Below, piece after piece: positions 12,986 to 42,052 of a stretch of DNA of 64,000 nucleotides. The DNA comes from a virus (lineage: Duplodnaviria > Heunggongvirae > Uroviricota > Caudoviricetes). Location: IMG/VR virus record IMGVR_UViG_3300047317_000139. One strand, written 5' to 3'. The stretch's first letter is position 1, and each line of letters starts with the position of its first letter. The notes beneath the pieces were generated by a model. The model worked only from the letters and a program-made list of their open reading frames with translations, did not search any database and was not told where the DNA came from. Both the position numbers and the translations under genes were made by a program.

Positions 12986-13010
12986 CTGGCTCGATGAGAC
13001 CGGGCAGCGG

Positions 13011-13828: not shown

Positions 13829-14224
13829 ATGAGCGCTGCCAACGTCCCGATCGAGATCGACCAGGGCGAGGACTGGACGGGCACGGTCGTCTACACCGAT
13901 GACTTCGACCAGCCCTACAACGTGATCGCTCCGTGCCGGCTGGACATCAAGAACACCACTGGCGCGACCCAGCTCTCACTGTCCACTCCGGACGACGTAG
14001 TGCCTGATGGCACGATCCCGGACATCGGGCTGAGCTCGGAGATCGGGCTCCTGCAGCTGCACATCGAGGACAGTGTGACCGCAGCCCTGATCCCAGGGGT
14101 CTACAAGTACGACCTGTTCGTGACCGTGAACGATGGCAACGAGTACGCCGGGAACCAGGTCCAGCGGATCATCTACGGTTCGGTCACGGTGAACCAGCGC
14201 GTCACTCAGCTAGGGAGTCCGTGA
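13829..14224 (+). CDS. hypothetical virion/fibre-associated protein (131 aa)
   Basis: AGGAG RBS; beta-rich; first gene of the collagen/fibre block. Confidence 0.4.
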   Translation: MSAANVPIEIDQGEDWTGTVVYTDDFDQPYNVIAPCRLDIKNTTGATQLSLSTPDDVVPDGTIPDIGLSSEIGLLQLHIEDSVTAALIPGVYKYDLFVTVNDGNEYAGNQVQRIIYGSVTVNQRVTQLGSP

Positions 14225-14559
14225 TGGAGAGCGCCTGGGGTATCGACCACGGTGAGGTGAGCAAGGGATGGGGTGGAGACGTAGCCAGGAAGACGGCCAA
14301 CGCGGCCACCAAGGCGCGCTTGAAGGCCCCCAAGACTCCTCGCTCGAACGCGAGAAACGACTACTACCAGCGTGGGACGCGGAAGTTCCGGAACCTGACT
14401 GAGCGCAGCCACCGCAACGATGAGACTGGCCAGCACAAGATCTCTCCCATGCGTTCTCGGGCCTTCGCACCGCTGGAGCGGCAGTATCCGGCCTACGGTG
14501 GTCGCACCGGGTCGAACTGGGAGTTCAACGGGAACAAGCGCGTGAGGAAGGCCTTCTGA
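14224..14559 (+). CDS. basic protein carrying the N-terminal MESAWGIDHGEVSK motif (family member 1)
   Basis: ATG at 14224 (or GTG at 14221) overlaps the upstream stop. The protein is very basic and probably disordered. The N-terminal peptide is shared with the proteins at 34933, 40038 and 40340. Confidence 0.5.
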   Translation: MESAWGIDHGEVSKGWGGDVARKTANAATKARLKAPKTPRSNARNDYYQRGTRKFRNLTERSHRNDETGQHKISPMRSRAFAPLERQYPAYGGRTGSNWEFNGNKRVRKAF

Positions 14560-15236
14560 TGGCGAACGTCGTACGGCTGGTCAACGGCGGGTCGATCCAG
14601 GTCCGCACTGGAGTCATCCAGGGAATCGGACCTCAGGGCCCGCGTGGTGTGGCCGGTCCTCAGGGGCCTGATGGTCCGGCTGGTCCGATCGGTGACCCTG
14701 GTCCGCAGGGACAGATCCTGCAGCTCCAGGGGATGAGCTCGGTGTCGTCGAACAACCCACTGTCTGCAGGCGCGGACACGGTGCTGGCCTTCGGCTCGGT
14801 GAGCTACGACGACCTGTCCGCTTTCACCTCCACCTCCAACATCACCCTGACCGCTGCTGGGGACTACCTGCTGTCGACCTGGGTGCGCTTCGACGCAGCC
14901 ACGGCCACCAAGCGCGAGGTGTGGTTCCAGACCGGCGGCTCGACCATCGCCCGGAAGTCGGTGATGGCTGACACCGGGATCTTCTACGTGGACCTGGCGA
15001 TGCCGTTCCGAGCTGCTGGTGGGGAAGTGGTCAATGTGCACGCACTCTCCGCCGTGGCCACGGGCATCTCCATGGGCTCGGTCTCGGTGACCCGTGTTGG
15101 GTCTGGGCCACCGGGACCACAGGGGCCTGTTGGACCTCAGGGACCGATCGGCGCGACTGGCGCTGCTGGTCCGACTGGTCCTGCGGGCACGGCGAACGCC
15201 GGGTTCACCTCGTACGCCCTGCTGCTTCCCCACTAG
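14559..15236 (+). CDS. collagen-like repeat protein (Gly-X-Y tracts at both ends, globular middle)
   Basis: GPQGPRGVAGPQGPDGPAGPIGDPGPQGQ at the N-terminus and GPPGPQGPVGPQGPIGATGAAGPTGPAG at the C-terminus. Confidence 0.6.
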   Translation: MANVVRLVNGGSIQVRTGVIQGIGPQGPRGVAGPQGPDGPAGPIGDPGPQGQILQLQGMSSVSSNNPLSAGADTVLAFGSVSYDDLSAFTSTSNITLTAAGDYLLSTWVRFDAATATKREVWFQTGGSTIARKSVMADTGIFYVDLAMPFRAAGGEVVNVHALSAVATGISMGSVSVTRVGSGPPGPQGPVGPQGPIGATGAAGPTGPAGTANAGFTSYALLLPH

Positions 15237-15245
15237 CATCAGCGC

Positions 15246-18200
15246 ATGACGTTCGACCAGGCGCAGTCTCCGCGTCTGGGCCAGCGCACTCCGGTCGAGT
15301 CCACCTACGTCCGGATGTTCTCCGGGACAGAGATCCCGGAGGCTGCCTGGCCCGGTCAGCTCATCTTCCGCTCGGACGAGAAGATCCTGCAGGTCTACGA
15401 CGGTGAGGCTGAGGCCTGGACCGATGTCGCGGGTGGAGTGGCTGGTCAGCTCACCTTCATCGGTGCCACTCAGCCGGTAGCGCAGTCGGTCGGGGACACC
15501 TGGTACGACTCCGACGACAACTACAAGCTCTACGTCTGGGATGGCAGCTCCTGGAACGTGGCGGTGGCGGGAGCTGTGGCCGGCACGGTCACGGAGTACT
15601 CGGTCAGCTCCAGTGAGACGGTGGCTCCCACCACTGGCTGGTCCACGTCCACGCCTACTCGCGCGCCTGGGACGTTCATCTGGGTGCGCACCACCAGCAC
15701 CCGCATCGACGGTACGAGCACCACCACCAACCCGGCCCTGATGACGGGCAACACGGGAGCGACCGGCCCGCAGGGATCAGCTGGGCCGCAGGGCATCCCA
15801 GGTCCTACCGGACCGAACGGCCAGCCGCTCTACACCTGGACCAAGTACGCGGACACGCCGACCACTGGGATGAGCGACAGCCCGACCGGGAAGACCTACC
15901 TCGGCCTGTCCTACAACCAACCCAACCCCACCGAGTCCAACGTCTACTCCGACTACCAGTGGTCGCTGATCGTGGGACCGCAGGGTGTGCCTGGACCAAC
16001 TGGTGCTGACGGTCAGCCGACCTACACCTGGATCAAGTACGGCACCAGCTCCACGGGCGCTGGGATCAACGACGATCCGACTGGCATGACCTACATGGGC
16101 ATCGCCTACAACAAGACCACGCCCACCGAGTCCACCAACCCCGCGCTGTACGAGTGGAGCCTGATCCAGGGTCCGCCTGGGGCGAACGCGGCCACCATCA
16201 CGCTCACCTCCACCACTCAGATCCTCACCTCTCCCTCGGGCGGAGGTGCGACCACGCCGGCGACTGCCACGGTCACTGGCACTGCGGTGAACACCACGAT
16301 CTCGGTCTGGGACTACAGCGTGGACAGCGGGGCCTTCTCTACCTCACTGCCTGCGGGCGTGTCGCGGGCCGGGAACGTGGTCACCATCACCGGTGCCACG
16401 ATGACCGCCAACACGATCGCGGTCCGGATGGGGAACGGCACGATCGCGGACACGCTCACGGTGGCCAAGGTCTACAACGGTGCGACTGGAGCCACGGGCA
16501 ACCCGGGCAGCACAGGTGGCACGGGTTCACCTGGTGCCGACGCCTACACGGTGCTGCTGACCAACGAGGCGGCGGTCTTCCCGGGCACGGTCACCGCAGC
16601 CATCGCTGGCAGCACCACCAGCAGCGTGCTGGCCTACAAGGGCGCGACCCGCGTCGCTGCCACGATCGGCACGATCACTGGTCAGCAGCCTGGGCTGACC
16701 ACGGCGATCACCAACAACGGGACCACCACTGCGGGGATCACGATCACCGTCACCACCTCGTTGACCCTGGCCGGCACTCTGGTCATCCCGATCACGGTGG
16801 ATGGGATCACCTTCAACAAGCAGTTCGCCTGGACGGTCAGCTTCACTGGCGCTACTGGCAACACCGGAAGTACTGGCCCCACTGGTCCGACTGGCGGCAC
16901 TGGCTCGCCCGGAGTCAGCGTCACCGCGATGACCCCGTACTTCGCCACGGTCACCTACGGAGCAGCAGCTCCCACCCAGCCCACCAACCAGGCGACTCCG
17001 CCTGCGCCCTGGGCCACTCTCGAACCGGCCTACACGGTGGGCACCGAGCTGTACCGCACCGACAAGTCCACTTACTCCGACGCGCACTACAGCTACTCGG
17101 TGGTCACCAAGGTCTCTTCGTACGCCGCTGTCGCCACCGACAACCTGCCGCCCACCAGCTCGCCCACACCCGAGGTGATCGCTGGGATCGGTGCGTTCTT
17201 CCTGCGCTGGCCGGCGATCACCAACCACGACCCGGTGGCCTACGAGGTGCACGTCAGCGACACCTCTGGGTTCACCCCAGACACCACTCCTGGCCCTACC
17301 AGCACCACGCGCTACACCACTACCACAGGGTTCTCGGTCACGGTGCGCAACCTGATCCCGGTCGACCAGGCCACTGGACTGCCCACCGCGTTCAACTACG
17401 GCCAGCCGTACTACTTCAAGATCCTGTCCCGAGACTCTGACGGCCCCTGCTCCGCGGGCGCGGGTGCGCAGGTAACTGGCACGATGCAGCCGATCACCGG
17501 CGAGGACATCACGGTGGGCTCGGTGCTGGCGGAGCACATCGTGGGTGGCACGCTGACCGGAGACCTGTTCAGTGGCCAGGTCTTCTTGGGGTCCACGATC
17601 AGTACCGGCGCGCTGAACCCGGATGGCACGATCTCGGGCGCACGGGTAGAGCTCAGCCCGCTGGGGCTGTTCGTCTACGACCAGACCAACACCCAGATCA
17701 CCGGCTTCCCACTGGACCCGTCTCAGGACGCTTTCGTCAAGCAGGCGCACTTCGACATGCTGTCGGCGGACGTGCAGAACAACTTCACCATGCACGGCAC
17801 CAACAACCAGATCGCCACCGAGGCCGAGCTGACGCTGGCCGCTGGGGTCACGGCTCCGACCGCGCAGCCGACCCTGGCTGCGGTCTACGACACGGTGCAG
17901 CTGGACCGGACCAACGCCTACCCGCCGCACAGCCCAGCGACCGACTACAACCTGGGCACCTTCGCGCTCGATCCCTCCCAGATCACCTCGATCGCCTGGA
18001 TCACTGCCTACGGCGGCTACTGGGCGGTGATCCAGCAGAAGTCCGCCGGGTTCCGGATCTGGCGGTTCAACGCCAATGGCACGGTCAAGGCCAACCCGGG
18101 CACCGGTCGACCCTGGCTCGACGACTGGAACGGGCGGACCAACTGCTTCGTCTGCTACGACCCGGTGGGCGGGGACCTGGTGACCCTGTTCCAGCAGGGC

Positions 18201-21200
18201 ACCGGGTACTTCCTGTTCGGCTACACCCCGACCGGGACCAGCATCATCAACTTCATCCCGGCCAGCTGGATCCTGGACTCGGCCACCCGTCCGCCCGGGC
18301 TCGCGTACGACGCTGCTGCCAGCCGCTACATCATGTTCCAGTCCAACGGCGGCGCGAACGGCACGCTGCACGTACGTCGGTTCCACGGTGTGGTCGGGTC
18401 GGGCGGACTGTGGGGCACAGCAGTCTCGGACAGCACTACGCAGAGCGCTGCTGGTGGAGGCCTGTCCCAGCGGCTGCACGGGCTGGTCTACGGCACCCAG
18501 GTCGGTGGGGCGAACCGGTACGTCATCGACGCCGACACCTACCTGCAGAACTACATCTTCGACACCTCGTGGGTGCAGAAGAACACCGATGGTGCCTACG
18601 AGCAGTGGTCCAAGCCGGCTGCTGCTCGCGGGTTCTGCCACAACGGCTCCCAGTTCGTCTCGGTGGACGCGACCGGGAAGATCACCTTCTACACGAACTG
18701 GAACTGGCCCCAGTCCAACTCGACCATCTACGTCGGGGCCTCGGCCATCGCCACCAGGCCCGCTCCGGACTACGAGACTCCGGTTGGCGCACTGGCCAGC
18801 ATCAGCCAGGCGCGACGGGCCAAGCTGATGATCACGATGCCCGAGACCGGGGACACGGGGGCGACCGCCTCTCCGAACCAGTGGGGTTTGTACTACCAGC
18901 GCAGCGCCACCGCTCTCACGGGCGGTTCGGGGATGAAGCAGATCGGGCTGATCGGTGCTGCATCAACTCCGTCCAGCGTCACGATCACTGCTGACCCCAC
19001 CGGAGCCGCGCCGGCGTTCGGCCTGGACGGGAAGCCCGACGCGAACTACTCCAGCTTCCCGGGCGCGAACCCGGCGCAGCTGACCAGCTACGCCTTCGAC
19101 GGCGTAGGCCCGCTCATCCAGCTGAACGGGGATGGCTCAGGACGGCTGGGATCGGCGTACTGGGACACCAACGGGAACTGGACCGGGATCGGCAGCGGTG
19201 GTGCGACCACGCTGGATACCTACACCCTCGCTGCCACAGCGGGCCTGACGCTGACCAATACCGACACCGACATCCCCGGGATGTCCACGTCGGTATCCGT
19301 GGGAGGGCCCTCGGATCGGTTCCTGGTGGTAGCCGCGTTCGACGCGCGTACTGCGGGAGCAGGCGACAACTCGGTGATGTCAGGGAAGCTGGTGGTCGAC
19401 GGCACGGCCCAGGTTGCGGTAGCGACCTTCAACAGCGGTAGCACGGCCAACCTTCGTGCCACGGTGCACCAGAGCTGGGTGATCAGCGGGATGGCCGCGG
19501 GCAACCACACGTTCAAGGCTCAGGCCTCGCAGGTCAACAGTGGCACGATCACCCTCAGCACGGTCCACACCAGGATGGTGATCGTCAAGCTGGTCGGCCC
19601 ACCCGGACCGAAGGGCGACAAGGGCGACACCGGAGCTACCGGATCTCAGGGCGCGACCGGAGCTACTGGTCCGACTGGAGCCACTGGTGGCCAGGGACCG
19701 ATCGGTAACACCGGACCACAGGGTGCTACTGGAGCTCAGGGGCCACAGGGTGCGACTGGAGCTCAGGGCATCCAGGGTCCGACTGGTAACACCGGTGCTC
19801 AGGGCACGGCTGGTGAGAAGTGGTTCTCGGGTGCCGGCGCTCCCTCGGGCGCGACCGGGGCAGTCAACGACTGGGACCTGGACACCACTGCCGGCGACAT
19901 CTACGAGAAGACCGGGGCCTCGACCTGGACCCTGCGCGGGAACATCAAGGGCCCACAGGGCACCACGGGAGCGACCGGTAGCCAGGGCATCCAGGGACCC
20001 ATCGGCAACACCGGTGCCACGGGTCAGGCCGAGGGCTGGTGGGGTGGTGCTGGAGCTCCGTCTGGAGCCACGGGAGCGGTCGGGGACTGGTACCTGAACC
20101 AGACCAACGGGGATGTCTACGAGAAGACGGGAGCGAGCGCCTGGACGCTGCGCACCAACATCACCGGCCCCGCTGGTCCTACCGGTGCTCAGGGCCCGCC
20201 AGGAGGCTCCTCAGCGGGTTCTGTGAACGTGGTGGACGAGACCACGCTGGTGGTCTCCAACGCCACCCAGATGTCTTTCAAGGGCACCGGCGTCACTGCG
20301 ACTGCTGGAGTGGCTGGCGAGGCCGTGGTCACCATCCCCACTCCTGCTGCGCTGCCTCCGAACGGGGCTGCAGGTGGAGACCTGGGTGGGACCTACCCGA
20401 ACCCCACGGTGCCTGCCCTGACGACCAAGGTGAACACCTCGGCGGTGGGCTCGGCCAGCGGTGTCGCCTCCCTGGACGGCAGCTCCAAGGTCCCGATCGC
20501 TCAGATCCCCACCGGACAGACCTCGACTACGGTCCCGCTCGGCAACGACACCAGGTTCACTGACGCCCGGACTCCGACCGCGCACGCGGCCAGCCACGGC
20601 TCTGGGCAGGCAGACGCGGTTCTGCTGAACGCCAACCAGATCAGTGCCGGGATCATGGGCGTGAACCGGCTGGGCAACAACCCGCAGGTCACCACCTACC
20701 TGAGAGCGGCTGGAACCTCGGGCGCTCCTGACTGGGTGTCGACGGCCACGGCGAAGACCGATCTGGGAGCTGGAGCAGCCAGCGGCCTGGCCACTCTGGA
20801 CGCCACTACCCGAGTACCGCCGGCGCAGCTCCCGCTGATGGGTGGCGGGAACCTGCTGGTCAACTCCAACTTCATCGAGACCACAGGGCTAGCGGCCAGC
20901 AACTTCGGCAGTGCTGCGATCACCCAGGAGACCACCACCACCTGGCGCAACGGGCGCGCGATGCGGGTCACCTCGTCCAACGCCAGCAACGCCTTCGGGA
21001 TCGGCAGCTACGCAGTGGTCAGCGAGACGGTCGCAGCTGGGAACCGGTTCGCTCCGAACACCGCCTACACGTTCACGATGTGGGTCTACAACCCGACTGC
21101 GAGTGGCACTGCGCAGGTCGCCATCATCACCACCGGCGCTGGGATCACCACCAACCCGAGTGCTACTACCACGGTCAAAGACACCTGGACTCGGCTGTCG

Positions 21201-22112
21201 GTCTCGTTCATCACCGCTGCCAGTGGCACCTTCACACTGCGGTCCGGCAGTGAGGCCAACCCCGCAGTCGGGCTGTACTACATCGTCGGTGCCTGGCAGG
21301 CCGAGCTCGGTGAGGTCCCGACCTCGTACGCCCCCAGGGCCACTGAGCTGGTCGTGGGATCCGGACTGGCGCTGACCGGGAGCACGCTCTCGATCGGGGT
21401 CGGTGGAGTCACCTCGAACATGATCAACGATGGCGAGATCGTGGCAGCTGACATCAACGCCTCGCTGAAGTCGCCAGCGGCTGGTGTCGAGGGGCTGCGC
21501 TCGCTGGGCACCGGATCCACCCAGGCAGCACCAGGGAACGACTCACGGTTCGTGCCGACCGGCTGCATGATGATGTGGCCGACCGCCACCCCGCCGGCTG
21601 GCTGGATCCTCTGTGATGGTGGATCTACGGCGAGCTACCCCGCGCTGGCAGCTGTGGTCGGCGCGAACGTTCCGGACATGCGAGACAAGTTCGCACAAGG
21701 TGTTGGACCGCTGAACGCGCTCAACGCTACGGGTGGCCAGGCTGGTATGCCTGGTCACACCCACGACATCGGGGACCACTACCACAACGCGACCTCCTCC
21801 CCGGGGTTTCCGAACTCCTCGACCGGTGCCCTGAACGCCAACAACGACGCCGGTGCCGTGCACGTCCACCCCATCGACATCGGCAACACGACCGGCTCTT
21901 CCACGTCTTCTCTGCAGAAGACCAACGGGACGATCGCCAACACGGGCGCGACCGGCCCGTACAACCCGACCAACTCCGGCGGTCACACCCACGCCATCAG
22001 CGGGCGCACGGCGTCCTCGCAGATGCAGAACACCGGAAGCACTGGTAGCGGCAACACATCCAACGAGAACCGGCCCCCGTTCCTGACCGTCAACTTCATC
22101 ATCAAGACGTGA
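15246..22112 (+). CDS. giant tail fibre protein (2288 aa) with collagen-like triple-helix tracts, internal tandem domain duplications and a C-terminal phage tail-collar domain
   Basis: The C-terminus MMWPTATPPAGWILCDGGSTASYPALAAVVGANVPDMRDKF...GHTHD... matches the phage tail-collar fold. A long G-X-Y tract runs from about 19600 to 20240 (GPPGPKGDKGDTGATGSQGATGATG...). There are repeated ~55-60-aa modules. Confidence 0.8.
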   Translation: MTFDQAQSPRLGQRTPVESTYVRMFSGTEIPEAAWPGQLIFRSDEKILQVYDGEAEAWTDVAGGVAGQLTFIGATQPVAQSVGDTWYDSDDNYKLYVWDGSSWNVAVAGAVAGTVTEYSVSSSETVAPTTGWSTSTPTRAPGTFIWVRTTSTRIDGTSTTTNPALMTGNTGATGPQGSAGPQGIPGPTGPNGQPLYTWTKYADTPTTGMSDSPTGKTYLGLSYNQPNPTESNVYSDYQWSLIVGPQGVPGPTGADGQPTYTWIKYGTSSTGAGINDDPTGMTYMGIAYNKTTPTESTNPALYEWSLIQGPPGANAATITLTSTTQILTSPSGGGATTPATATVTGTAVNTTISVWDYSVDSGAFSTSLPAGVSRAGNVVTITGATMTANTIAVRMGNGTIADTLTVAKVYNGATGATGNPGSTGGTGSPGADAYTVLLTNEAAVFPGTVTAAIAGSTTSSVLAYKGATRVAATIGTITGQQPGLTTAITNNGTTTAGITITVTTSLTLAGTLVIPITVDGITFNKQFAWTVSFTGATGNTGSTGPTGPTGGTGSPGVSVTAMTPYFATVTYGAAAPTQPTNQATPPAPWATLEPAYTVGTELYRTDKSTYSDAHYSYSVVTKVSSYAAVATDNLPPTSSPTPEVIAGIGAFFLRWPAITNHDPVAYEVHVSDTSGFTPDTTPGPTSTTRYTTTTGFSVTVRNLIPVDQATGLPTAFNYGQPYYFKILSRDSDGPCSAGAGAQVTGTMQPITGEDITVGSVLAEHIVGGTLTGDLFSGQVFLGSTISTGALNPDGTISGARVELSPLGLFVYDQTNTQITGFPLDPSQDAFVKQAHFDMLSADVQNNFTMHGTNNQIATEAELTLAAGVTAPTAQPTLAAVYDTVQLDRTNAYPPHSPATDYNLGTFALDPSQITSIAWITAYGGYWAVIQQKSAGFRIWRFNANGTVKANPGTGRPWLDDWNGRTNCFVCYDPVGGDLVTLFQQGTGYFLFGYTPTGTSIINFIPASWILDSATRPPGLAYDAAASRYIMFQSNGGANGTLHVRRFHGVVGSGGLWGTAVSDSTTQSAAGGGLSQRLHGLVYGTQVGGANRYVIDADTYLQNYIFDTSWVQKNTDGAYEQWSKPAAARGFCHNGSQFVSVDATGKITFYTNWNWPQSNSTIYVGASAIATRPAPDYETPVGALASISQARRAKLMITMPETGDTGATASPNQWGLYYQRSATALTGGSGMKQIGLIGAASTPSSVTITADPTGAAPAFGLDGKPDANYSSFPGANPAQLTSYAFDGVGPLIQLNGDGSGRLGSAYWDTNGNWTGIGSGGATTLDTYTLAATAGLTLTNTDTDIPGMSTSVSVGGPSDRFLVVAAFDARTAGAGDNSVMSGKLVVDGTAQVAVATFNSGSTANLRATVHQSWVISGMAAGNHTFKAQASQVNSGTITLSTVHTRMVIVKLVGPPGPKGDKGDTGATGSQGATGATGPTGATGGQGPIGNTGPQGATGAQGPQGATGAQGIQGPTGNTGAQGTAGEKWFSGAGAPSGATGAVNDWDLDTTAGDIYEKTGASTWTLRGNIKGPQGTTGATGSQGIQGPIGNTGATGQAEGWWGGAGAPSGATGAVGDWYLNQTNGDVYEKTGASAWTLRTNITGPAGPTGAQGPPGGSSAGSVNVVDETTLVVSNATQMSFKGTGVTATAGVAGEAVVTIPTPAALPPNGAAGGDLGGTYPNPTVPALTTKVNTSAVGSASGVASLDGSSKVPIAQIPTGQTSTTVPLGNDTRFTDARTPTAHAASHGSGQADAVLLNANQISAGIMGVNRLGNNPQVTTYLRAAGTSGAPDWVSTATAKTDLGAGAASGLATLDATTRVPPAQLPLMGGGNLLVNSNFIETTGLAASNFGSAAITQETTTTWRNGRAMRVTSSNASNAFGIGSYAVVSETVAAGNRFAPNTAYTFTMWVYNPTASGTAQVAIITTGAGITTNPSATTTVKDTWTRLSVSFITAASGTFTLRSGSEANPAVGLYYIVGAWQAELGEVPTSYAPRATELVVGSGLALTGSTLSIGVGGVTSNMINDGEIVAADINASLKSPAAGVEGLRSLGTGSTQAAPGNDSRFVPTGCMMMWPTATPPAGWILCDGGSTASYPALAAVVGANVPDMRDKFAQGVGPLNALNATGGQAGMPGHTHDIGDHYHNATSSPGFPNSSTGALNANNDAGAVHVHPIDIGNTTGSSTSSLQKTNGTIANTGATGPYNPTNSGGHTHAISGRTASSQMQNTGSTGSGNTSNENRPPFLTVNFIIKT

Positions 22113-33940: not shown

Positions 33941-34936
33941 ATGAGCGACATCCACGAGCTGCTGGCCACGGACGAGACGTTCCGCGAGGTCGCTGATCTG
34001 CTGTTCGGTGGCGGAGGAGATGAGCTCATCTCCAAGATCAGCCCGACTCAGTCTGATCTGGCCACTCACGACAAGCGCAAGCGCATGACCACTGCGGGTC
34101 TGAGCGCTATCGGAGCCACGGCTGGTGCAGCTGGTCTGGGTCTGGCCGGCAAGGAGACCTACCACGGGATCAAGAACGCCCCGAAGGGCCTGTCGGCGAC
34201 CGGAAAGCTCGTGCACGCGGCGAAGACCAAGAAGCTCGCCACTGCGCTGGTCCCGCTGGAGGTGGCAGGCCTGGGTGGTGAGCTGATGGCCACCAAGATC
34301 CTGCACGGAGACACCAAGAAGAAGATCCCGGTCTCCAAGGCCTCCGACCTGCTGCTGAACAACGCCAGCGAGATCCCCACCTCCAAGGGCAAGCTGACCC
34401 GGGCTGTGATCTCCAGCCCCAAGGTCCGGAAGAAGGGGGTGGAGTACACCAAGAAGGGCGCGGGTGTGCTGAAGCGAGTCCCGGACAAGCTGGTCACCCA
34501 CCACAAGGTCGAGAAGGCCGACACCGAGATCGACGTGGTCTGGGAGGGCGACTTCGCCAAGGCCGACGCTGACAAGCAGCAGGTCTTCGGCTGGGCCAGC
34601 GTGGTAGAGGTGGACGGCCAGCCGGTGGTGGACCTGCAGGGCGACTACATCTCCACCGACGAGATGGAGAAGGCTGGCTACCAGTACGTGATGAAGTCCC
34701 GGAAGGGTGGCGACATGCACCTGAGGGACAACTGGGCTCCGATCCAGAAGTCGGAGATGATCGAGAGCTTCATCGTCACCCCCGAGAAGCGGGACGCGAT
34801 GGGCCTGCCGGACTCGGTGCCGACCGGCTGGTGGGTCGGGTTCCAGGTCCAGGACCAGCAGGTCTGGAGCGACATCAAGGACGGGAAGCGGACCGGGTTC
34901 TCCATCCACGGTCACGGGAAGCGGAGCCCGGCATGA
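33941..34936 (+). CDS. XkdF-like (peptidase S78-2-like) putative prohead protease with a Lys-rich N-terminal extension
   Basis: The C-terminal QQVFGWASVVEVDGQPVVDLQGDYISTDEMEKAGYQYV...GDMHLRD...GWWVGFQVQDQQVWSDIKDGKRTGFSIHGHG resembles the XkdF family pattern. Confidence 0.5.
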   Translation: MSDIHELLATDETFREVADLLFGGGGDELISKISPTQSDLATHDKRKRMTTAGLSAIGATAGAAGLGLAGKETYHGIKNAPKGLSATGKLVHAAKTKKLATALVPLEVAGLGGELMATKILHGDTKKKIPVSKASDLLLNNASEIPTSKGKLTRAVISSPKVRKKGVEYTKKGAGVLKRVPDKLVTHHKVEKADTEIDVVWEGDFAKADADKQQVFGWASVVEVDGQPVVDLQGDYISTDEMEKAGYQYVMKSRKGGDMHLRDNWAPIQKSEMIESFIVTPEKRDAMGLPDSVPTGWWVGFQVQDQQVWSDIKDGKRTGFSIHGHGKRSPA

Positions 34937-36291
34937 GCCTCTCAGCCTTCGGGATCGACCACGGTGGCATCTCCAAGGCCGAGGACCCGAACCGGAAGAA
35001 GCAGGTCGCTGTAGCTGCCGGCGGCACTGCTGCGGCGGGCGGAGTCGGACTGGCTGCGACCAAGATCCCTGAGCACTCCCACTACGACAAGAAGACCCGG
35101 AAGTACCTGCACTCGCTCCCCGCGGGCGAGCACGAAGTGCCGACCTCGATGCTGTCGACGCGACCCAGGAAGCTCGGTGCTCGGAAGCAGCAGGCTCCGT
35201 ACGTGGCAGCGATGGCGCAGGAGCGTCCGCTGGAGTCCTTCCACGCCTCTCCGGTCCCGGTCACCCGATACAAGGGCAAGGGCCACCCCACCATCCAGCG
35301 GGACAACGCGCACACGGTGATGGCCAACGCGATGAAGGGCCGCACCACCAAGATCAAGATCGAGGATGCTCCTGGCTACCGCCCGAACCGGAGGACTGGC
35401 GAAGAGCTGGTCAGACGCGGGCAGATGCGGTATCAGCAGCGCCGGCTGAAGCTGCACACCAACCTCTCGGAGAAGGCGATCGAGGGGATCCGAGGGAAGT
35501 ACACCGACAAGTCCCGAGCGGCCAACACGACCAAGCGCCCGCACGGGGTGGTAGAGGACACCCTGAAGTACAACCCGAAGAAGTACTCGGTGGCCCGAGC
35601 GGTGGGACGAGCCGGGAACCTCGCGGCAGTGGTGAAGAGGGATGATCGCCGGGGGCGAGACACAGCCGCCGGCGTCACCGGGGCGGCTGGGGTAGGAGCG
35701 CTGGCATCTACGCCGGTGCGGCGCTCAGCGGCCAAGGTGGATGTCTCCGGCGGCTCGATGAGCGCGTCTGACGCCAAGAAGGTCGTCTCTCCTGGATACC
35801 GCCCTGGGAACAAGCGCGCGATCCGGACGATGGCCGCGAACCTGGGTCACCTGGAGAACAAGCCCACCACGGTGGTCAGGTACAAGGGCGGACACGTGGT
35901 CCCCTTCGACGGGAACCACCGAGCCTCTGCTCGGGTCGCACGCGGGGACGCACGAGTCCCGGTGAACGTGGTCGAGGGCGGCGAGCGCCCTGCGGTCTCC
36001 GTGGCTCGGAACGCCTACCACGTCGCTCAGCAGAAGGTGCACCAGTCGCGGCTGGACCGGGACGTGTTCAAGCCCAACTCCAAGATCGGCCGGCACGCTG
36101 GTGAGACCAAGGCCTACTCTGCGATCGCCAACGCATCTCCGCTCCGGTCCGGGAAGCGAGTCGCGATCGGGTCCACCAAGCTAGGTTCGGGCCCGACCAA
36201 GGCAGTGTTGAGGACCAAGCAGGGTCTGGCGCTGGGTGCCAGTGCCGCGCTACTGGGTACCTCTGCTCACCTGCACAGGAAGAAGAGCTGA
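34933..36291 (+). CDS. very basic (Lys/Arg-rich) protein, 452 aa, with the N-terminal MSLSAFGIDHGGISK motif (family member 2); putative internal virion/DNA-associated protein
   Basis: ATGA overlap with the upstream gene. Strongly basic composition. The shared N-terminal motif is present. The table ORF 34831..36291 starts upstream inside the previous gene. Confidence 0.5.
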   Translation: MSLSAFGIDHGGISKAEDPNRKKQVAVAAGGTAAAGGVGLAATKIPEHSHYDKKTRKYLHSLPAGEHEVPTSMLSTRPRKLGARKQQAPYVAAMAQERPLESFHASPVPVTRYKGKGHPTIQRDNAHTVMANAMKGRTTKIKIEDAPGYRPNRRTGEELVRRGQMRYQQRRLKLHTNLSEKAIEGIRGKYTDKSRAANTTKRPHGVVEDTLKYNPKKYSVARAVGRAGNLAAVVKRDDRRGRDTAAGVTGAAGVGALASTPVRRSAAKVDVSGGSMSASDAKKVVSPGYRPGNKRAIRTMAANLGHLENKPTTVVRYKGGHVVPFDGNHRASARVARGDARVPVNVVEGGERPAVSVARNAYHVAQQKVHQSRLDRDVFKPNSKIGRHAGETKAYSAIANASPLRSGKRVAIGSTKLGSGPTKAVLRTKQGLALGASAALLGTSAHLHRKKS

Positions 36292-37166
36292 TGAAGCCAC
36301 TCATGAGCGACGCGGAGATGCGTCGTCGGCAGAAGCTGCAGGGCAAGATCGGCCGGACCACCTCCACGCTGGGCCTGTCCGGAGTGGCGCTGACCGGTGC
36401 TGCGATCGCGACCAAGAAGAAGCCAGGCGCGCTGAAGGCAGTCACCAAGGTCCCAGGACTCAGCCGAGTCAGCCATGGTGGTCTGAAGAACGCCGCCTTC
36501 CACACCTCGATCGCGGCTGGCGGCATCGGCGGTGTAGGAGGGTTCAACCAGGCAGCGATCTACTCGGCAGAGTCCAGGAAGCGCAAGGCAGCGACTGTGG
36601 TGAAGAAGGAGTTCGGCATGGAGATGGGCTACTACGGGGAGGAAGGCCGTCCCCTCACTCACCAGCAGATCGAGGCCGAGATCGAGAAGGCCTGGACGCC
36701 ATCGGCCTCCAACTTCGACTCCGAGCGCAGCCGGCACCGACGTACTGGTGCCTACCAGGCCGGGGCCATGGCAGCTGCCGGTGCTGGTGGTGCGTACGCC
36801 GCCCGGCACGGGGTGAAGGCCGTACAGCAGGGCAAGAAGATCCAGTCGATCCCGGACTCGGCTCAGATCAAGACGGTCGAGGAGACGGTCAGGCCGAAGG
36901 CAGGCAAGGAGTTCACCCGGAACGTGAAGCGGGCCGGGAAGACGTTCCGGGCTCTCGACGCGGACGTGGTCGGGCGGACCCTGAAGCATGGGGGCAAGGC
37001 CGGGCTCGGGCTGGCGGCGGTCGGTGGCGCGGCTGCCACTCACTCCGCGATCAACCGAAAGAAGAGCGGTTCCTGGCAGTCGTACGCCAAGCGCGATGCC
37101 ACATCAGCGTTCGGAGTCGATCACAGCGACAACCCGAATGGACAGCACCGTGAGACTGAGAACTAG
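36291..37166 (+). CDS. Gly/Ala/Lys-rich head-module protein with a C-terminal ...SAFGVDHSDNP motif-like segment
   Basis: ORF table. Gly-rich and low in complexity. Near its C-terminus there is a copy of the SAFG(V)DH peptide. Confidence 0.45.
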   Translation: MKPLMSDAEMRRRQKLQGKIGRTTSTLGLSGVALTGAAIATKKKPGALKAVTKVPGLSRVSHGGLKNAAFHTSIAAGGIGGVGGFNQAAIYSAESRKRKAATVVKKEFGMEMGYYGEEGRPLTHQQIEAEIEKAWTPSASNFDSERSRHRRTGAYQAGAMAAAGAGGAYAARHGVKAVQQGKKIQSIPDSAQIKTVEETVRPKAGKEFTRNVKRAGKTFRALDADVVGRTLKHGGKAGLGLAAVGGAAATHSAINRKKSGSWQSYAKRDATSAFGVDHSDNPNGQHRETEN

Positions 37167-37177
37167 AGGTAGATGAG

Positions 37178-37996
37178 ATGCCACGACCGAAGAACAACCT
37201 GACTGACATGGAGATCGACGAGATCTCCACCGTCGACAAGGCCGCGAACCAGCACTCACGGTTCGTCATCGCGAAGCGGGCTCCCGAGGAGGAAGAGATG
37301 CCCAAGCTCTACAACCAGGAGGGCCAGCCCCTCGACGAGGACCAGCTGGAGTTCGGCGACATCGTGTACGACGACACAGGCGCTGCCTACGAGTACGTCG
37401 AGAACGAGGTCGAGGACGAAGCTGTCGAGAAGGAAGAGGACCAGCCAGTGCCCGAGCTCGCAGGAGTGGGCAAGTCGGCGTTCTTCGAGAAGCAGGCCAA
37501 GGCCGGCAGCTTCAGCGCATCGGTGATGGAGGAGCTCAGCAAGGCGTTCTCCGACAAGGACCGTGACGCGGTCATCGCCAAGGCGCTCGGTCGGGTCGAG
37601 GAGCTGGAGAAGGCTCAGGCCGAGTCCACGAAGATCGCCAAGGCCGAGCGCGACCTGCGCCTGACCCGTGAGTACATCTCCAAGGCGGCGGAGTACAACC
37701 TCCCGATCCCCGCCCAGGAGCTCGGCCCGGTGCTCTACCGGATGGCCGAGACCATGAGCTTCGAGGACTGCTCGGTGATCGCCAAGGCTCTGGAGACGGC
37801 GGGCGAGATCATCTTCGAGGAGAAGGGCTACACGGGCGGCGGCGACAACTCCGACGTGTACTCCCAGGTCGAGGCTCACGCCTACGAGGCCTTCGGCAAG
37901 GCCGAGAACTTCGACGCTGTCTCAGCCATCAACACGGTGTTCGACCAGAATCCGGACGCCTACGACGAGTACCTGCGCTCGCAGCAGGCCCGGTAG
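37178..37996 (+). CDS. scaffolding protein (acidic, helical/coiled-coil)
   Basis: Acidic and Glu/Ala-rich, immediately upstream of the decoration-like and capsid genes. Confidence 0.5.
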   Translation: MPRPKNNLTDMEIDEISTVDKAANQHSRFVIAKRAPEEEEMPKLYNQEGQPLDEDQLEFGDIVYDDTGAAYEYVENEVEDEAVEKEEDQPVPELAGVGKSAFFEKQAKAGSFSASVMEELSKAFSDKDRDAVIAKALGRVEELEKAQAESTKIAKAERDLRLTREYISKAAEYNLPIPAQELGPVLYRMAETMSFEDCSVIAKALETAGEIIFEEKGYTGGGDNSDVYSQVEAHAYEAFGKAENFDAVSAINTVFDQNPDAYDEYLRSQQAR

Positions 37997-38426: not shown

Positions 38427-39425
38427 ATGCCGAACCCCACTCAGAGCGATCTCCACGTCAACGTGCCGCTGACCAACGTCAGCGTTGCGTACATGCAGGA
38501 CAAGGCGCAGTTCATCGCGGACAAGGTCTTCCCGCGTGTGCCAGTGCAGAAGCAGAGCGATCTGTACTGGAAGTACTCCAAGTCCGACTGGCGCAGGACC
38601 GACGCGCAGAAGCGCGCCCCCGGCACCGAGACGGCTGGAGTCGGCTGGAAGGTCGACACGGGGCAGTACTTCTGCGAGGTCTGGGGTGTCCACAAGGACA
38701 TCGACGACCAGGTCCGCGCGAACGCCGACTCGAACTGGAGGCTCGACTCTGACGCCACCACGTTCGTCACCAACCAGCTCCTGCTCCGGCGGGACCTGGA
38801 CTGGAACGCCAAGTTCTTCACCACCGGCCAGTGGGGTACCGACCTCGCCGGCGTGACCGGGACGGTCGGCGCAGGGCAGTTCCTGCAGTGGAGCGACCCG
38901 GCCTCGGACCCGATCGTGCAGTTCTCCGATCTGCAGACGAACTTCGTGGAGCAGTCAGGCCGCAAGGCCAACACGCTGGTCCTCGGTGCTCGGACGATCA
39001 CTCAGCTGAAGAACCACCCGGACATCATCGACCGCATCAAGTACACCCAGCGTGGTGTGGTGACCACCGACCTCCTCGCGTCGCTCTTCGACGTCGAGCG
39101 GATCCTGGTCAGCTACGCGACGGTGACCGGTGTGGCCGAGCTGAACGACGCCAAGGCGCAGGACGCTGCCGCGACGTACAGCTTCATGTCCAACTCCAAG
39201 TCGGCGCTGCTGGTCTACACCCCCAGCTCGCCGTCCCTGATGACCCCGGCCGGCGGCTACACCTTCACCTGGAACGGGTACCTGGCTGGCAACAGCTACG
39301 GGATCCGGATGAAGAACTTCCGGATGGAGCCGATCGCTGCGGACCGCATCGAGGGCGAGATGACCTACGACATGCGGGTGGTCGCCAAGGACATGGGCAT
39401 CTTCCTGTCCAACGCGGTGGCGTAG
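38427..39425 (+). CDS. major capsid protein
   Basis: 332 aa, preceded by the scaffold gene and followed by a strong hairpin, as expected for a highly expressed capsid gene. Confidence 0.6.
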   Translation: MPNPTQSDLHVNVPLTNVSVAYMQDKAQFIADKVFPRVPVQKQSDLYWKYSKSDWRRTDAQKRAPGTETAGVGWKVDTGQYFCEVWGVHKDIDDQVRANADSNWRLDSDATTFVTNQLLLRRDLDWNAKFFTTGQWGTDLAGVTGTVGAGQFLQWSDPASDPIVQFSDLQTNFVEQSGRKANTLVLGARTITQLKNHPDIIDRIKYTQRGVVTTDLLASLFDVERILVSYATVTGVAELNDAKAQDAAATYSFMSNSKSALLVYTPSSPSLMTPAGGYTFTWNGYLAGNSYGIRMKNFRMEPIAADRIEGEMTYDMRVVAKDMGIFLSNAVA

Positions 39426-39483: not shown

Positions 39484-40038
39484 GTGCAGATGGCCATCCA
39501 GCTGCTGAAGAACGACGGGATCTCCTTCGTCGCGGCCAAGAACTTCACGTACGCCGGCGAGGAGTACGTGATGGGGCAGGAGTTCCCCCAGGAGAAGGCC
39601 AAGAACATCGAGACGCTCGTCCGCGCTCGGTTCGTGATCCCGGTCCTCGAAGAGGGCGCGCTGCGTCCTCGGCACTGGCACACCCATGTCCGCACCCGCG
39701 AGGAGGCGGAGGAGTACCTGAACCGGGACCGGGTGCAGCTGGTCTGGCCTGCGGAGCCGGACACCCAGGTAGACCTGGAGGTGCTCACCAACCCCGAGCT
39801 CACTCCTGAGCCGGAGGGAGATGGCGAGGATGCCCTGGCTCCTGCTGAAGATTCTGTGGAAGAGCCTCCTGCTGACCCTGAGCCGCCGGAGAGCCTCGAA
39901 GAGACCTACGACCCGGCTGAGCACAACGTAGACGCGGTCCTGGAGTACCTGGACGAGCATCCTGAGCAGCGGGACGCGGTCCTGGCGATGGAACGCGCAG
40001 GACGCGGTCGCAAGGGGCTCCTGGGAGACGATGAGTGA
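39484..40038 (+). CDS. hypothetical head-module protein (184 aa, acidic Pro/Glu-rich C-terminus)
   Basis: ORF table; GGAG RBS. Confidence 0.45.
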   Translation: MQMAIQLLKNDGISFVAAKNFTYAGEEYVMGQEFPQEKAKNIETLVRARFVIPVLEEGALRPRHWHTHVRTREEAEEYLNRDRVQLVWPAEPDTQVDLEVLTNPELTPEPEGDGEDALAPAEDSVEEPPADPEPPESLEETYDPAEHNVDAVLEYLDEHPEQRDAVLAMERAGRGRKGLLGDDE

Positions 40039-40340
40039 TGGAGAGCGCATTCGGCGTTGACCACGGCTCCGAGGAGATCTCGAAGCTGGGACTGAAGCCG
40101 CCTGGCATGGGCACGCTGAAGCCGATGGTCCAAGGGATGCAGAGCGCGTTCAAGATGGGCGCTCAGGGCGTGCACGGCCCAGCAGCTTCGGTTGGTGCTG
40201 GGCGCGCGATGGGCGCTGGTGCGATGACCCGCAAGGTCGGCCAGTTCGGGATGAAGAACAAGAAGCCGCTGGCCATCGGCGCAGGAGCAGCTGGCGCTGG
40301 TGCTGCTGGAGGCATGCTCACGAGCCGTAGGCGGTTCTGA
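40038..40340 (+). CDS. small basic Gly/Ala-rich protein with the N-terminal MESAFGVDHGSEEISK motif (family member 3)
   Basis: ATG at 40038 (or GTG at 40035) overlaps the upstream stop. The shared N-terminal peptide is present. Confidence 0.5.
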   Translation: MESAFGVDHGSEEISKLGLKPPGMGTLKPMVQGMQSAFKMGAQGVHGPAASVGAGRAMGAGAMTRKVGQFGMKNKKPLAIGAGAAGAGAAGGMLTSRRRF

Positions 40341-40660
40341 TGCAGAGCGCGTGGGGGATCGAGCACGGGGACGCGGTCTCCAAGATGCGCCTGCCCCGTC
40401 GACTGGTGGGTCCGAAGCCACCCCCTCCGGGGGCCCAGCGAGCTCCGTCTCGGGCCACTCAGATCAAGGGCAAGCTGAACCGCCTGGGAGAGAAGGACAT
40501 CTCCGTCAAGGAGCTGGGCGCGAGCGCGGGACGTGGCGTGGGCAACGTCGGTAGGTTCATGCAGAACCGTCCCGGTCTCACCGGTACTGCACTGGTGGGA
40601 GGAGGCGGCGCGGCGGGCTACAAGCTCGTGAACGACAGGTCCAGGAAGAAGACGCGCTGA
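40340..40660 (+). CDS. small basic Gly-rich protein with the N-terminal MQSAWGIEHGDAVSK motif (family member 4)
   Basis: Tandem paralogue of the preceding gene. ATG overlaps the upstream TGA. Confidence 0.5.
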   Translation: MQSAWGIEHGDAVSKMRLPRRLVGPKPPPPGAQRAPSRATQIKGKLNRLGEKDISVKELGASAGRGVGNVGRFMQNRPGLTGTALVGGGGAAGYKLVNDRSRKKTR

Positions 40661-41181: not shown

Positions 41182-41594
41182 CGACCAATCCGATCTCCGA
41201 TCACGCGATCGCCTACGTGCGCGGGCAGGCCACAGCGGTGATGACCACCACCTGCCAGATCTTCAGTCGTGAGGTCCCAGAGGCCTACGACGAGGAGACC
41301 CTGGTCTACACCGCGGCGGGTCTGGCGCAGATGGTCTACGAGGGCGTCTGTCGGATCTGGGAGGTGGCCAACTCGTCCTCGGTGATAGTCGGCGACACCG
41401 ACGTGTACCAGCAGACCACCAACCTCTCGATCCCCTGGGACACCACTGCGGTGATCAAGCGCTACGACGAGGTGATCATCGTCGACGAGCCCAACGACCC
41501 ACAGATGGCCGGCAGGCGTTACGAGATCCAGACGGTGGCCAAGGCTGGTGCGATGCGCGCGACCCGGCGCTTCGAGGTCACCGGGATCATGTGA
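41178..41594 (+). CDS. putative head closure / connector protein
   Basis: Position; coupled to its neighbours. Confidence 0.35.
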   Translation: MTTNPISDHAIAYVRGQATAVMTTTCQIFSREVPEAYDEETLVYTAAGLAQMVYEGVCRIWEVANSSSVIVGDTDVYQQTTNLSIPWDTTAVIKRYDEVIIVDEPNDPQMAGRRYEIQTVAKAGAMRATRRFEVTGIM

Positions 41595-42052
41595 TGGGGG
41601 CAGTCGGACAGGCTGACATCTCCAAGCTGGCGGACGCACTCCGGCAGACCGCAGACGACTCCCAGATCACCACTCAGCAGGTACTGGTCCAGAGCGCCAA
41701 CCAGATCCTGGCGGAGATGGAGGCGCTGGTTCCGGTCGACACCGGCAGGCTGCGCACTTCATTGCAGATCCGGGTGGACACAGACCGGGTCATCATCGGA
41801 CCCAACGAGAACATCGCTCCGTACGGCGGCTACGTCGAGTTCGGCACCAAGCCCCACACGATCGTCCCGAAGAAGCCGGGTGGCGTCCTGGTGTTCAAGA
41901 TGAACGGCCAGACCGTCTACACCAAGAAGGTCCGGCACCCGGGCACCAAGGCTCAGCCGTACGTCCGCCCTGCGTTTGAGGCATGGGTGGACTCCCTTGG
42001 GACGATGGCAGCAGAGGCCAACATCAAGGTGCTGAAGGACGGTGCGAGGTAG
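41591..42052 (+). CDS. HK97 gp10-family tail-component protein
   Basis: The segment LVPVDTGRLRTSLQIRVD...GGYVEFGT resembles the HK97 gp10 family signature. Confidence 0.5.
   Translation: MMGAVGQADISKLADALRQTADDSQITTQQVLVQSANQILAEMEALVPVDTGRLRTSLQIRVDTDRVIIGPNENIAPYGGYVEFGTKPHTIVPKKPGGVLVFKMNGQTVYTKKVRHPGTKAQPYVRPAFEAWVDSLGTMAAEANIKVLKDGAR

Follow-up and report, generated by a model that had tools for sequence, protein, structure and literature searches.

The 64,000-nucleotide stretch of the tailed-phage record IMGVR_UViG_3300047317_000139 (IMG/VR; Caudoviricetes), referred to here in its full length as the window, encodes a short peptide tag that recurs on otherwise unrelated, strongly basic proteins. 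The tag is real, selected as a peptide and phage-specific. Its consensus is the 14-residue M-x-SAFGVDHG-x-VSK, carried N-terminally by four genes of the window (g14224, p452, g40038 and g40340) and near the C-terminus by a fifth (p291). We give somewhat better than even odds (about 0.55) to the reading that this element is a propeptide akin to the capsid-targeting sequence (CTS) of phage T4, which the prohead protease would remove at (V/I/L)-x-K and which would mark proteins as cargo of the head interior.

A six-frame scan of the window with the pattern SA(W/F)G(I/V)(D/E)H returned five matches (at 14230, 34942, 40044, 40346 and 37104), all on the + strand and in the frame of real long open reading frames (ORFs), compared with none in 50 shuffled windows (0/50). 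A profile built from 289 instances outside the window recovered the same five with scores of 36.7 to 12.4, the next-best match scoring 3.4. The four N-terminal copies have their core 1-2 residues past the ATG; the fifth lies 20 residues before the C-terminus of p291. The scan thus confirms both the shared N-terminal peptide on four ORFs and the C-terminal fifth copy that a preliminary description of this DNA had reported. That description also held that each tagged gene overlaps the stop codon of its upstream neighbor and that selection acts on the peptide, and both statements stand. All four start codons overlap the preceding stop (TGATG or ATGA), as do those of 101 of 144 tagged genes outside the window. 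Third codon positions differ among the five DNA copies of the window. Outside it, over 144 copies, the information content at the Gly third positions is 0.02-0.13 bit, and AGY as well as TCN codons are used for Ser; because third positions vary freely and the type of Ser codon switches, selection acts on the peptide. The DNA upstream of these 144 copies holds a weak purine-rich ribosome-binding site and otherwise no conserved signal.

Downstream of the tag, the four bodies in the window have isoelectric points (pI) of 11.0-12.0, net charges of +12 to +52 and Gly/Ala-rich compositions, and pairwise BLASTP among them gave no similarity better than E = 0.5. They are as basic, Gly/Ala-rich and dissimilar as first described; the label "family", however, does not hold in the sense of homology, as the tag is the sole part that the proteins have in common. 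The body of g40038 is 23% Gly with zero acidic residues, and that of g40340 has a Gly-rich hydrophobic segment and then a basic tail at its end. Also present in g40038 (amino acids 32-41, 40131-40160) is a weak internal echo of the tag, GMQSAFKMG, which is not statistically significant. The tag had been put forward as matching no described signal, and we find none: the motif strings have no match in the searchable literature, no copy was found in a cultured phage, and the motif had no counterpart in Pfam (0 families for g14224, g40038, g40340 and p452) or in PHROGs, where the tagged proteins gave solely phrog_30383 at E = 0.005 for g14224.

Beyond the window, a word-indexed search with the alignment of the N-termini identified 35 small basic proteins (36-88 amino acids), all starting M-x-SAFG(V/I)DHG-x-(V/I)SK and unrelated beyond that point. 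A profile search run exhaustively against 1.84 billion cluster representatives (clusters at 50% identity, E ≤ 0.001) yielded 321 clusters with unrelated bodies; in each of the 150 listed, the match begins within residues 1-4. A degenerate DNA pattern for the tag occurs in at least 113 IMG/VR stretches, many of them with 2-5 tandem copies. Head modules carry 2-9 copies each, and one 81-kb ENA contig (L001) has 9 in a 20-kb region that extends from MuF/protease to tail-tube genes. The tagged proteins are mostly short, disordered and extremely basic (182 unique complete proteins: median 110 amino acids, median pI 11.5, 16% Gly, 14% Ala, 9.5% Lys, 9% Arg, no Cys), and many of their bodies finish with a Gly-zipper-like hydrophobic stretch and then Lys/Arg. 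One tagged subfamily (proteins P0002, P0005, P0013, P0017, P0018, P0022 and P0026; loci L072, L053 and L001) continues after the tag as SK-GLPSAL(R/K) and has -(V/K/A/F/E)-L-P as its C-terminus, another conserved terminal element.

Tag-bearing loci have the portal, MuF protein, protease, scaffold and major capsid protein (MCP) of the window in common. Among 80 loci picked by MCP similarity alone, nearly all with an MCP identity of at least 75% hold 1-7 strict tags, and the slot between the genes p184 and p173, in which g40038 is the first of a tandem pair, holds 0-4 tagged genes of 36-233 amino acids. Distant relatives carry variant cores (SVWGVDHG, SYWGVEHG, SPWGVDHG, NAFGVDHT and TPFGVEHT), always with (V/I)(S/A)K next, and some sister lineages possess the same protease, scaffold and MCP yet have no tag and few small basic genes. 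Four loci (L192, L204, L185 and L194) with an MCP at 59-67% identity, a homologous scaffold and protease and no recognizable tag can serve as tag-minus comparators; in L192, the protease lies inside an 812-amino-acid protein and the scaffold has 571 amino acids. Across 185,579 bacterial and archaeal species genomes, the tag pattern gave 20 isolated matches, none genuine: each is single, non-N-terminal and without (V/I)SK, as expected by chance. There is consequently no tagged prophage and no tag-bearing host protein among them, which speaks against a host motif or a prophage as the source of the tag and suggests that the phage clade is strictly lytic. In cultured phages, tblastn with g40340 and with a consensus 20-mer returned nothing relevant, and the whole genome of phage Kharcho has no tag.

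A second line of evidence concerns the tripeptide with which the tag ends. In 147 non-redundant tagged proteins (<50% mutual identity) the tag ends in (V/I/L/F/M)-x-K without exception (147/147), and it is 14 residues long in 131 of them. In the bodies of the same proteins, judged against 300 shuffles made globally or within 12-residue windows, (V/I/L)-x-K occurs 76 times where 161-166 are expected (0.46), and 0/300 shuffles were as low. By comparison, (V/I/L)-x-R is 1.4-fold enriched, and K-x-(V/I/L), (V/I)-K and (V/I)-x-x-K stand at 1.15, 0.94 and 0.86 of expectation, so that the avoidance concerns Lys specifically and one orientation only. The four window bodies follow suit, with 3 (V/I/L)-x-K against 9.0 expected (p about 0.016) and 20 (V/I/L)-x-R against 11.1. 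Taken narrowly, (V/I)-S-K is not depleted in the bodies (11 against 13.6 expected), and it was discarded as the cleavage motif since depletion appears only for the broader tripeptide.

The acidic scaffolding protein of the window displays the opposite bias, with 10 (V/I/L)-x-K sites against 3.0 expected (z 5.1). In order, and with an arrow at the candidate scissile bond, they are TVDK↓AA, VIAK↓RA, VEK↓EE, VGK↓SAFF, LSK↓AF, VIAK↓AL, LEK↓AQ, IAK↓AE, ISK↓AA and VIAK↓AL. In 36 scaffold orthologs there are 296 sites against 70 expected (4.2-fold), located at conserved alignment positions (FVIAK↓RAP, VGK↓SAFF, ELSK↓AFS, AVIAK↓ALG, IAK↓(A/S)ER, YISK↓AAE and SVIAK↓ALE) and giving the logo I/V/L - A/S/G - K↓A/S. 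The frequency is 0.87-1.12 of expectation in the portal, MuF protein, MCP and p1168 (a 1168-amino-acid protein without known function) and near expectation in the early genes, the fiber genes and the terminase plus portal of the window, with a mild enrichment in its connector and tail genes (32 against 23.1, z 2.2). Sites that are concentrated in the scaffold, purged from the disordered bodies and placed at every module boundary form the pattern that a protease specificity produces. The scaffolds of cultured relatives are biased likewise (Rhizobium phage RHph_Y52, 20 against 7.3; Arthrobacter phage Kovu, 10 against 4.2). As these phages have no detected tag, the scaffold enrichment supports the cleavage site and not the role of the core, and the (V/I/L)-x-K specificity is probably older than the tag. 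The tag may itself be derived from, or mimic, the scaffold site VGK↓SAF(F/G), a suggestion prompted by the presence of this site even in tag-less lineages; variants of the tag (SAFG, SVWG, SYWG and NAFG) showed no clear pattern of co-variation with the K↓SAF segment of the scaffold. As further observations on the scaffold, VGK↓SAFF resembles the tag start and its K↓SAF segment is kept in tag-less lineages (VGKSAFGFDP in locus L210), and the window protein is organized around repeated (V/I)-(A/S)-K-(A/S) tetrapeptides, with 10 in its 272 amino acids, two (A/S)VIAKAL among them.

The tag is found N-terminally, internally and C-terminally, always beside (V/I/L)-x-K. The first 1.0 Mb of loci contained 288 matches, of which 243 are N-terminal and 45 are not; after de-duplication and with longer leaders set aside, the latter comprise about 23 C-terminal and about 10 truly internal copies. 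Three C-terminal copies end exactly at the core His (SAFGVEH) and eight more end 1-3 residues later, for example as SAFGVDHE, SAFGIEHQ or SAFGIDHGY; ahead of the C-terminal copies stand VSK, VKK, VRK, VGK or YAK(RDxx). Some proteins are built as strings of such modules. Protein P0211 (399 amino acids) contains the unit ...K↓SAFG(I/V)EH..(V/I)xK four times, each time with a Gly/Ala-rich basic stretch behind it, and the unit is present twice or three times in P0156, P0159, P0166, P0200 and P0259. P0213 consists of two modules joined via a degenerate internal tag; its second half matches g40340, and the module fused to it is assigned to the g40038 position by its place in the slot alone. In locus L106, an 825-amino-acid protein is a fusion of p452 and p291 with a tag at both ends. 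Two comparisons of orthologs bear on the boundaries of the element. GKVSK↓SAFGVDHEVSK↓ASILG in locus L105 corresponds to GKVSK↓ASVLT in L022, and the difference is an 11-residue cassette bounded by VSK. Additionally, distant orthologs of p291 stop at ...SW.SY(R), without the tail, which is where a cut after YAK would leave the p291 of the window.

An XkdF-like protease gene had been named in the preliminary description, and its product indeed has an XkdF/Peptidase_S78_2 domain, with a match that exceeds the Pfam gathering score and a fold shared with T4 gp21 (assemblin/gp21 clan). Ahead of the domain lies an N-terminal extension of ~200 amino acids that is basic, Gly/Ala-rich and cargo-like. 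The extension begins with a conserved ...LLFGGGGDELISK (nt 33941-34036), and across orthologs its start reads ...F(R)EVADLLFGGGxDELI(S/T)K, which loosely resembles the tag and closes with ISK. Directly after ...DELISK, the window protease continues with ISPTQSDL (nt 34037-34060; region 34028-34063, amino acids 30-41), the orthologs having mostly MNPTQSD(L/V) at this position and the distant ones LQDPSEVHVNQPL. The MCP of this lineage starts with the almost invariant MPNPTQSDLHVNVPL, such that a cut after ISK would expose an MCP-like N-terminus on the protease fragment. The MCP-like segment behind the protease ISK lends independent support to (I/V)-S-K as a real cleavage point, and the segment may be a mimic of the MCP N-arm that serves to incorporate the protease into the shell. 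A second candidate site, VSK↓AS, lies in the linker of the protease (KKKIPVSK↓ASD, amino acids 131-133). In the AlphaFold2 model of the protease, the tag-like N-terminus was of low confidence and not docked on the protease domain, and a literature search on XkdF cleavage sites found nothing.

Not all tagged proteins are small and disordered. The protein p452 contains two putative domains of ParB/sulfiredoxin type, recognizable by the segments I-Q-R-D-N-A-H and F-D-G-N-H-R, and both DGNHR and the tag are invariant in 28 orthologs. Its AlphaFold2 model has a mean confidence (pLDDT) of 68, with residues 1-43, the tag region, disordered. Foldseek searches consistently placed ParB, Srx, KorB and Noc on top, with weak matches (E = 0.03-1, target TM ~0.5). 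The disordered linker between the two p452 domains contains AVVK↓RDD, a possible internal processing site. At other loci (L043, L054, L037, L020, L066 and L004), a tagged subfamily of around 250 amino acids (~210-320) has HExxH and then (K/N)(K/R)…(Y/W)RL; its members, which have no Pfam match, may be zincin-like metallopeptidases, and no tagged HExxH protein was found in the window. ParB/Srx and zincin-like metallopeptidase domains have been reported in phage effectors that are packaged into the head and processed, for example P1 DdrB (PMC5512222).

We favor a model in which a recognition core, (S/N)-x-(F/W)-G-(V/I)-(D/E)-H, sits inside a portable propeptide of ~14 residues and would direct the tagged protein either to the protease or to the head being assembled. 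The prohead protease (gp21 fold, XkdF type) would cleave at the tripeptide (V/I/L)-x-K, with an aliphatic residue at P3, a small one at P2, Lys at P1 and Ala/Ser/Gly at P1'; written out, candidate cleavage peptides would be MESAFGVDHGEVSK↓GL, KKVSK↓SAFGVDHE and AVIAK↓ALGR. The hypervariable, basic, largely disordered proteins and a few probable enzymes (a ParB/Srx-like one here, HExxH proteins at other loci) would be the cargo recruited into the assembling procapsid. As the head matures, the protease would cut up the scaffold at its ~10 sites and remove the tag from every cargo protein. The basic proteins, now without a tag, would remain beside the DNA in the head, where they would probably serve as counter-ions for it and/or be injected along with it as effectors. 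We infer cleavage, the responsible enzyme and encapsidation from conservation of the tag only, location of the genes in the head module, the tripeptide at the tag end with its avoidance in the bodies and excess in the scaffold, and the gp21 fold of the protease; the core would bind the scaffold, the inner face of the MCP shell or the protease. These same features support the likeness to the T4 CTS drawn in the preliminary description, and every computational test able to contradict that analogy came out in its favor.

Several points weigh against this model. The evidence for it is comparative sequence evidence throughout. In L001, connector and tail genes surround some of the tagged genes, and 20 kb separate g14224, which is next to fiber genes, from the head genes. 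The tag was found in no cultured phage, and the scaffolds of RHph_Y52 and Kovu are enriched in the site with no tag detected there; the scaffold enrichment could be in part structural, since the protein is made of amphipathic helices with repeated VIAKAL. Pfam designates XkdF a "putative" protease. Depletion of the site is slight in p291 (0.90) and in the set of g40340 orthologs (0.92), the tag region being included in both values. As far as the sequence goes, the cut could fall upstream of the core (K↓SAFG), downstream of it ((V/I)SK↓) or on both sides.

Five alternatives are disfavored by the data, though not all equally, and the first two would take experiments to exclude. The first of these, which we judge improbable, is that the tag is a retained docking peptide of the encapsulin type or like the N-terminal targeting region of P1 DarB: the core would bind the shell interior or the scaffold and never be cut, (V/I/L)-x-K being part of the binding motif. 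The occurrence of the tag at either terminus and internally is how terminal docking peptides behave, the proteins that end exactly at the core His would suit a free C-terminal ligand, and proteolysis has here been deduced rather than observed. However, a docking peptide hardly explains why bodies avoid (V/I/L)-x-K in a Lys- and orientation-specific manner with compensating (V/I/L)-x-R, nor why the scaffold has the tripeptide ~10 times. It also leaves aside the tripeptide that stands without a core at equivalent positions (L022 versus L105; VSK↓AS of the protease) and the tail-less p291 orthologs that end where cleavage would leave them.

A shade less probable is the second alternative, in which the tag is a processing or activation signal only, borne for instance by basic Gly-zipper pro-proteins, membrane-active or toxic, that would stay inert before cleavage and act in the cytoplasm or membrane (lysis, superinfection exclusion) rather than in the head. 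Many bodies have Gly/Ala-rich hydrophobic stretches between Lys/Arg that resemble transmembrane helices, some of the genes with a tag are placed away from the core head genes, and a cleavage signature by itself is no proof of encapsidation. Against this, the procapsid interior is where prohead proteases with the gp21/assemblin fold act, and the protease here has a similar basic Gly/Ala-rich extension itself. Furthermore, ParB/Srx-like and HExxH proteins, of the kinds usual among packaged effectors, belong to the tagged set, and the genes of this set are embedded in, and through the start/stop overlaps translationally coupled to, the head genes.

The remaining explanations are weaker. We consider it very unlikely that the tag addresses a host partner (a protease, chaperone or clamp, as in phage 80alpha) or secretion. 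A short linear motif on many unrelated proteins, with bodies basic like ribosomal proteins, would fit such a role, but the chance-like matches in the genome scan leave no host protein as a model for mimicry, the tag lacks the hydrophobic character of a signal peptide and its C-terminal and internal copies misfit an N-terminal secretion leader. Just as doubtful is that the excised peptide of 7-14 residues is itself the active product, set free in many copies in each head, whether as a protease cofactor like adenovirus pVIc or as a maturation timer. The peptide is far more conserved than the proteins attached to it, internal copies flanked by sites on both sides would come out intact, and the scaffold has its ...VGK↓SAF(F/G) element even in tag-less lineages. 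Yet this proposal is not parsimonious, leaves the uniformly basic, site-purged bodies unexplained, and found no sign of peptide-protease binding in AlphaFold2. Least probable of all is a nucleic-acid or gene-cassette element (a recombination joint or translational-coupling leader) with peptide conservation as a by-product: tagged genes do act as cassettes in variable slots, their start codons mostly overlap the preceding stop and a common 42-nt 5' end could promote recombination, but the codon analysis, with essentially random third positions and Ser swaps between AGY and TCN, largely refutes it, the upstream DNA offers only the weak ribosome-binding site and C-terminal and internal copies are equally conserved.

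The concept of a removable propeptide on head-internal proteins is known from T4 and phiKZ-like phages. The T4 protease gp21 has the cleavage consensus L/I-x-E, which is shared by the T4 scaffold core and the CTS; for this reason the scaffold-rich, substrate-poor distribution of sites described here mirrors the T4 situation. In T4, the CTS is a short N-terminal peptide and the only conserved part of hypervariable head-internal proteins (PMC3012670). The likeness between the tag and the CTS of IPI, IPII and IPIII with gp21 thus extends from the short N-terminal peptide as sole conserved element of a hypervariable set to the predicted aliphatic-x-charged form of the site, the many such sites in the scaffold and the basic internal proteins. 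The differences are also considerable. The tags have no sequence resemblance, and P1 would be Lys here as opposed to Glu in T4; as judged from the tags, the relation to the T4 CTS is one of analogy and not of tag homology. Further, the tag also occurs at C-termini and between polyprotein modules, up to 9 or more tagged genes per genome are scattered from head to tail genes, and the genome is of a siphovirus type of ~80 kb, probably from a phage of Actinobacteria, with a Mu-type portal and MuF.

Among phiKZ-like phages, the gp21-like gp245 of SPN3US cuts propeptides of head and ejection proteins at a three-residue consensus, with multiple sites and self-cleavage (PMC10052503). The N-terminal propeptides on many head proteins and the three-residue consensus have their likeness here, where cleavage is predicted. 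The SPN3US propeptides, however, mostly have 111-254 residues (two have 20 and 24), and no common motif has been reported for them (PMC10052503), whereas here a single tag of ~14 residues is reused on unrelated proteins. Encapsulin cargo-loading peptides are short terminal peptides that bring diverse cargo into an HK97-fold shell from either cargo end; they share with the tag the use of a short terminal address at either end, but they are retained, have a GSL-type consensus and are not known to involve a maturation protease, while here the consensus differs and a cleavage-site signature flanks the tag. In Staphylococcus phage 80alpha, N-terminal extensions of the capsid and scaffold proteins copy ribosomal protein L27 and are cut by the host protease Prp. 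One N-terminal motif on several head proteins and one protease are common to both systems, but the 80alpha motif copies L27 for a host enzyme, in contrast to a tag that is absent from 185,579 genomes with a phage protease encoded nearby. Finally, P1 DdrB/DarB and the MuF fusions, whose ParB/Srx and zincin-like HExxH domains are carried in phage heads, encoded by late genes near MuF and proteolytically processed (PMC5512222), resemble the system as predicted here; they differ in being large multidomain fusions addressed by MuF or other domains, as opposed to small genes with one 14-residue tag.

What appears to be undescribed is the tag sequence, the Lys-type site, the use in N-terminal, C-terminal, internal and polyprotein positions and the spread through an uncultured clade of soil-type phages with ~80-kb genomes. 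A fuller formulation, which we find plausible but would put somewhat below even odds, is that in this actinophage-like clade a universal and position-independent zip-code and cut-site cassette, (V/I/L)xK↓SAFGVDHG-x-(V/I)SK↓, loads a rapidly turning-over capsid arsenal. This arsenal would comprise small enzymes and protamine-like basic proteins, dozens in all and unrelated to each other, that are encoded as single genes or polyproteins and clipped by a Lys-specific gp21-fold protease. Few phages besides T4 have a defined address peptide for the capsid interior, and the present tag is short, highly conserved and found on hundreds of unrelated proteins together with a predicted protease specificity, which makes it directly testable. 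If the proposal is correct, it would provide a handle on the "dark" small basic ORFs in structural modules of soil phages, predict proteins that are delivered with the DNA as candidate anti-defense or DNA-condensing factors, and represent a second, independently evolved CTS system with use as a tool for loading foreign proteins into actinophage capsids. Hyperplastic loci for head-internal cargo would then be a general phage strategy and not a peculiarity of T-even phages. The site-avoidance statistic, combining depletion in substrates with enrichment in the scaffold, is a general route from metagenomes to prohead protease specificity.

The features of the window are listed in Table 1. The WhiB gene and a G+C content of 64% suggest that the host belongs to the Actinobacteria. 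The portal gene is followed by that for p1168 and then MuF, and the order past the MCP gene is p184, g40038, g40340, connector genes and the tape-measure gene (44051). A protein 100% identical to the window protease is encoded on a 77.7-kb JGI contig, with relatives on contigs of 80-82 kb. The closest MCP of a cultured phage is that of Arthrobacter phage Kovu at 46% identity; with megablast, the head region matched INPHARED solely over 94 nt of the MCP gene, in the Arthrobacter phages Kharcho and Ottawa, and tblastn with the scaffold against phages gave no match.

Table 1. Genes of the window and their tags (positions in nucleotides, nt; arrow, candidate cleavage site)
Feature	Position	Strand	Description
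WhiB-family transcription factor gene	12858-13472		
g14224	14224..14559	+	Tagged, 111 amino acids, body pI 11.5; tag MESAWGIDHGEVSK = nt 14224-14265
Collagen-repeat protein	starts 14559		225 amino acids
Fiber	15246..22112		2288 amino acids, collagen repeats and tail-collar domain
Mu-type portal	starts 26596		
MuF-domain protein	31963-33918		
Prohead protease	33941..34936	+	XkdF/Peptidase_S78_2 domain, amino acids 205-328 (PF14550, E = 7.9e-18)
p452	34933..36291	+	Tagged, 452 amino acids, pI 11.0; tag MSLSAFGIDHGGISK = nt 34933-34977
p291	36291..37166	+	291 amino acids, pI 10.4; C-terminal copy ...SWQSYAK↓RDAT-SAFGVDH-SDNPNGQHRETEN; YAK = nt 37083-37091, core = nt 37104-37124
Acidic scaffolding protein	37178..37996	+	272 amino acids
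Cement protein	starts 38012		
Major capsid protein	38427..39425	+	N-terminus MPNPTQSDLHVNVPL (38427-38471, amino acids 1-15)
g40038	40038..40340	+	Tagged, 100 amino acids, body pI 12.0; tag MESAFGVDHGSEEISK = nt 40038-40085
g40340	40340..40660	+	Tagged, 106 amino acids, body pI 12.0; tag MQSAWGIEHGDAVSK = nt 40340-40384

The gene g14224 directly precedes the collagen-like and tail-collar fiber genes, and this giant fiber region (14559-22112) has an unusual placement, ~20 kb upstream of the tail genes. In the connector region, the ORF at 41591..42052 begins MMGAVGQADISK↓L, a tag-like ending without the core (41591-41630) that is not significant. The MuF protein contains degenerate P-V-A-D-I / A-P-A-D-I repeats at amino acids ~340-400 (…ADILDSVLADI…ADIVAPADITAPVVDITLPVADIDVAPVADIADAPVADIL…), which lie between its MuF domain and an uncharacterized C-terminal domain of ~250 amino acids.

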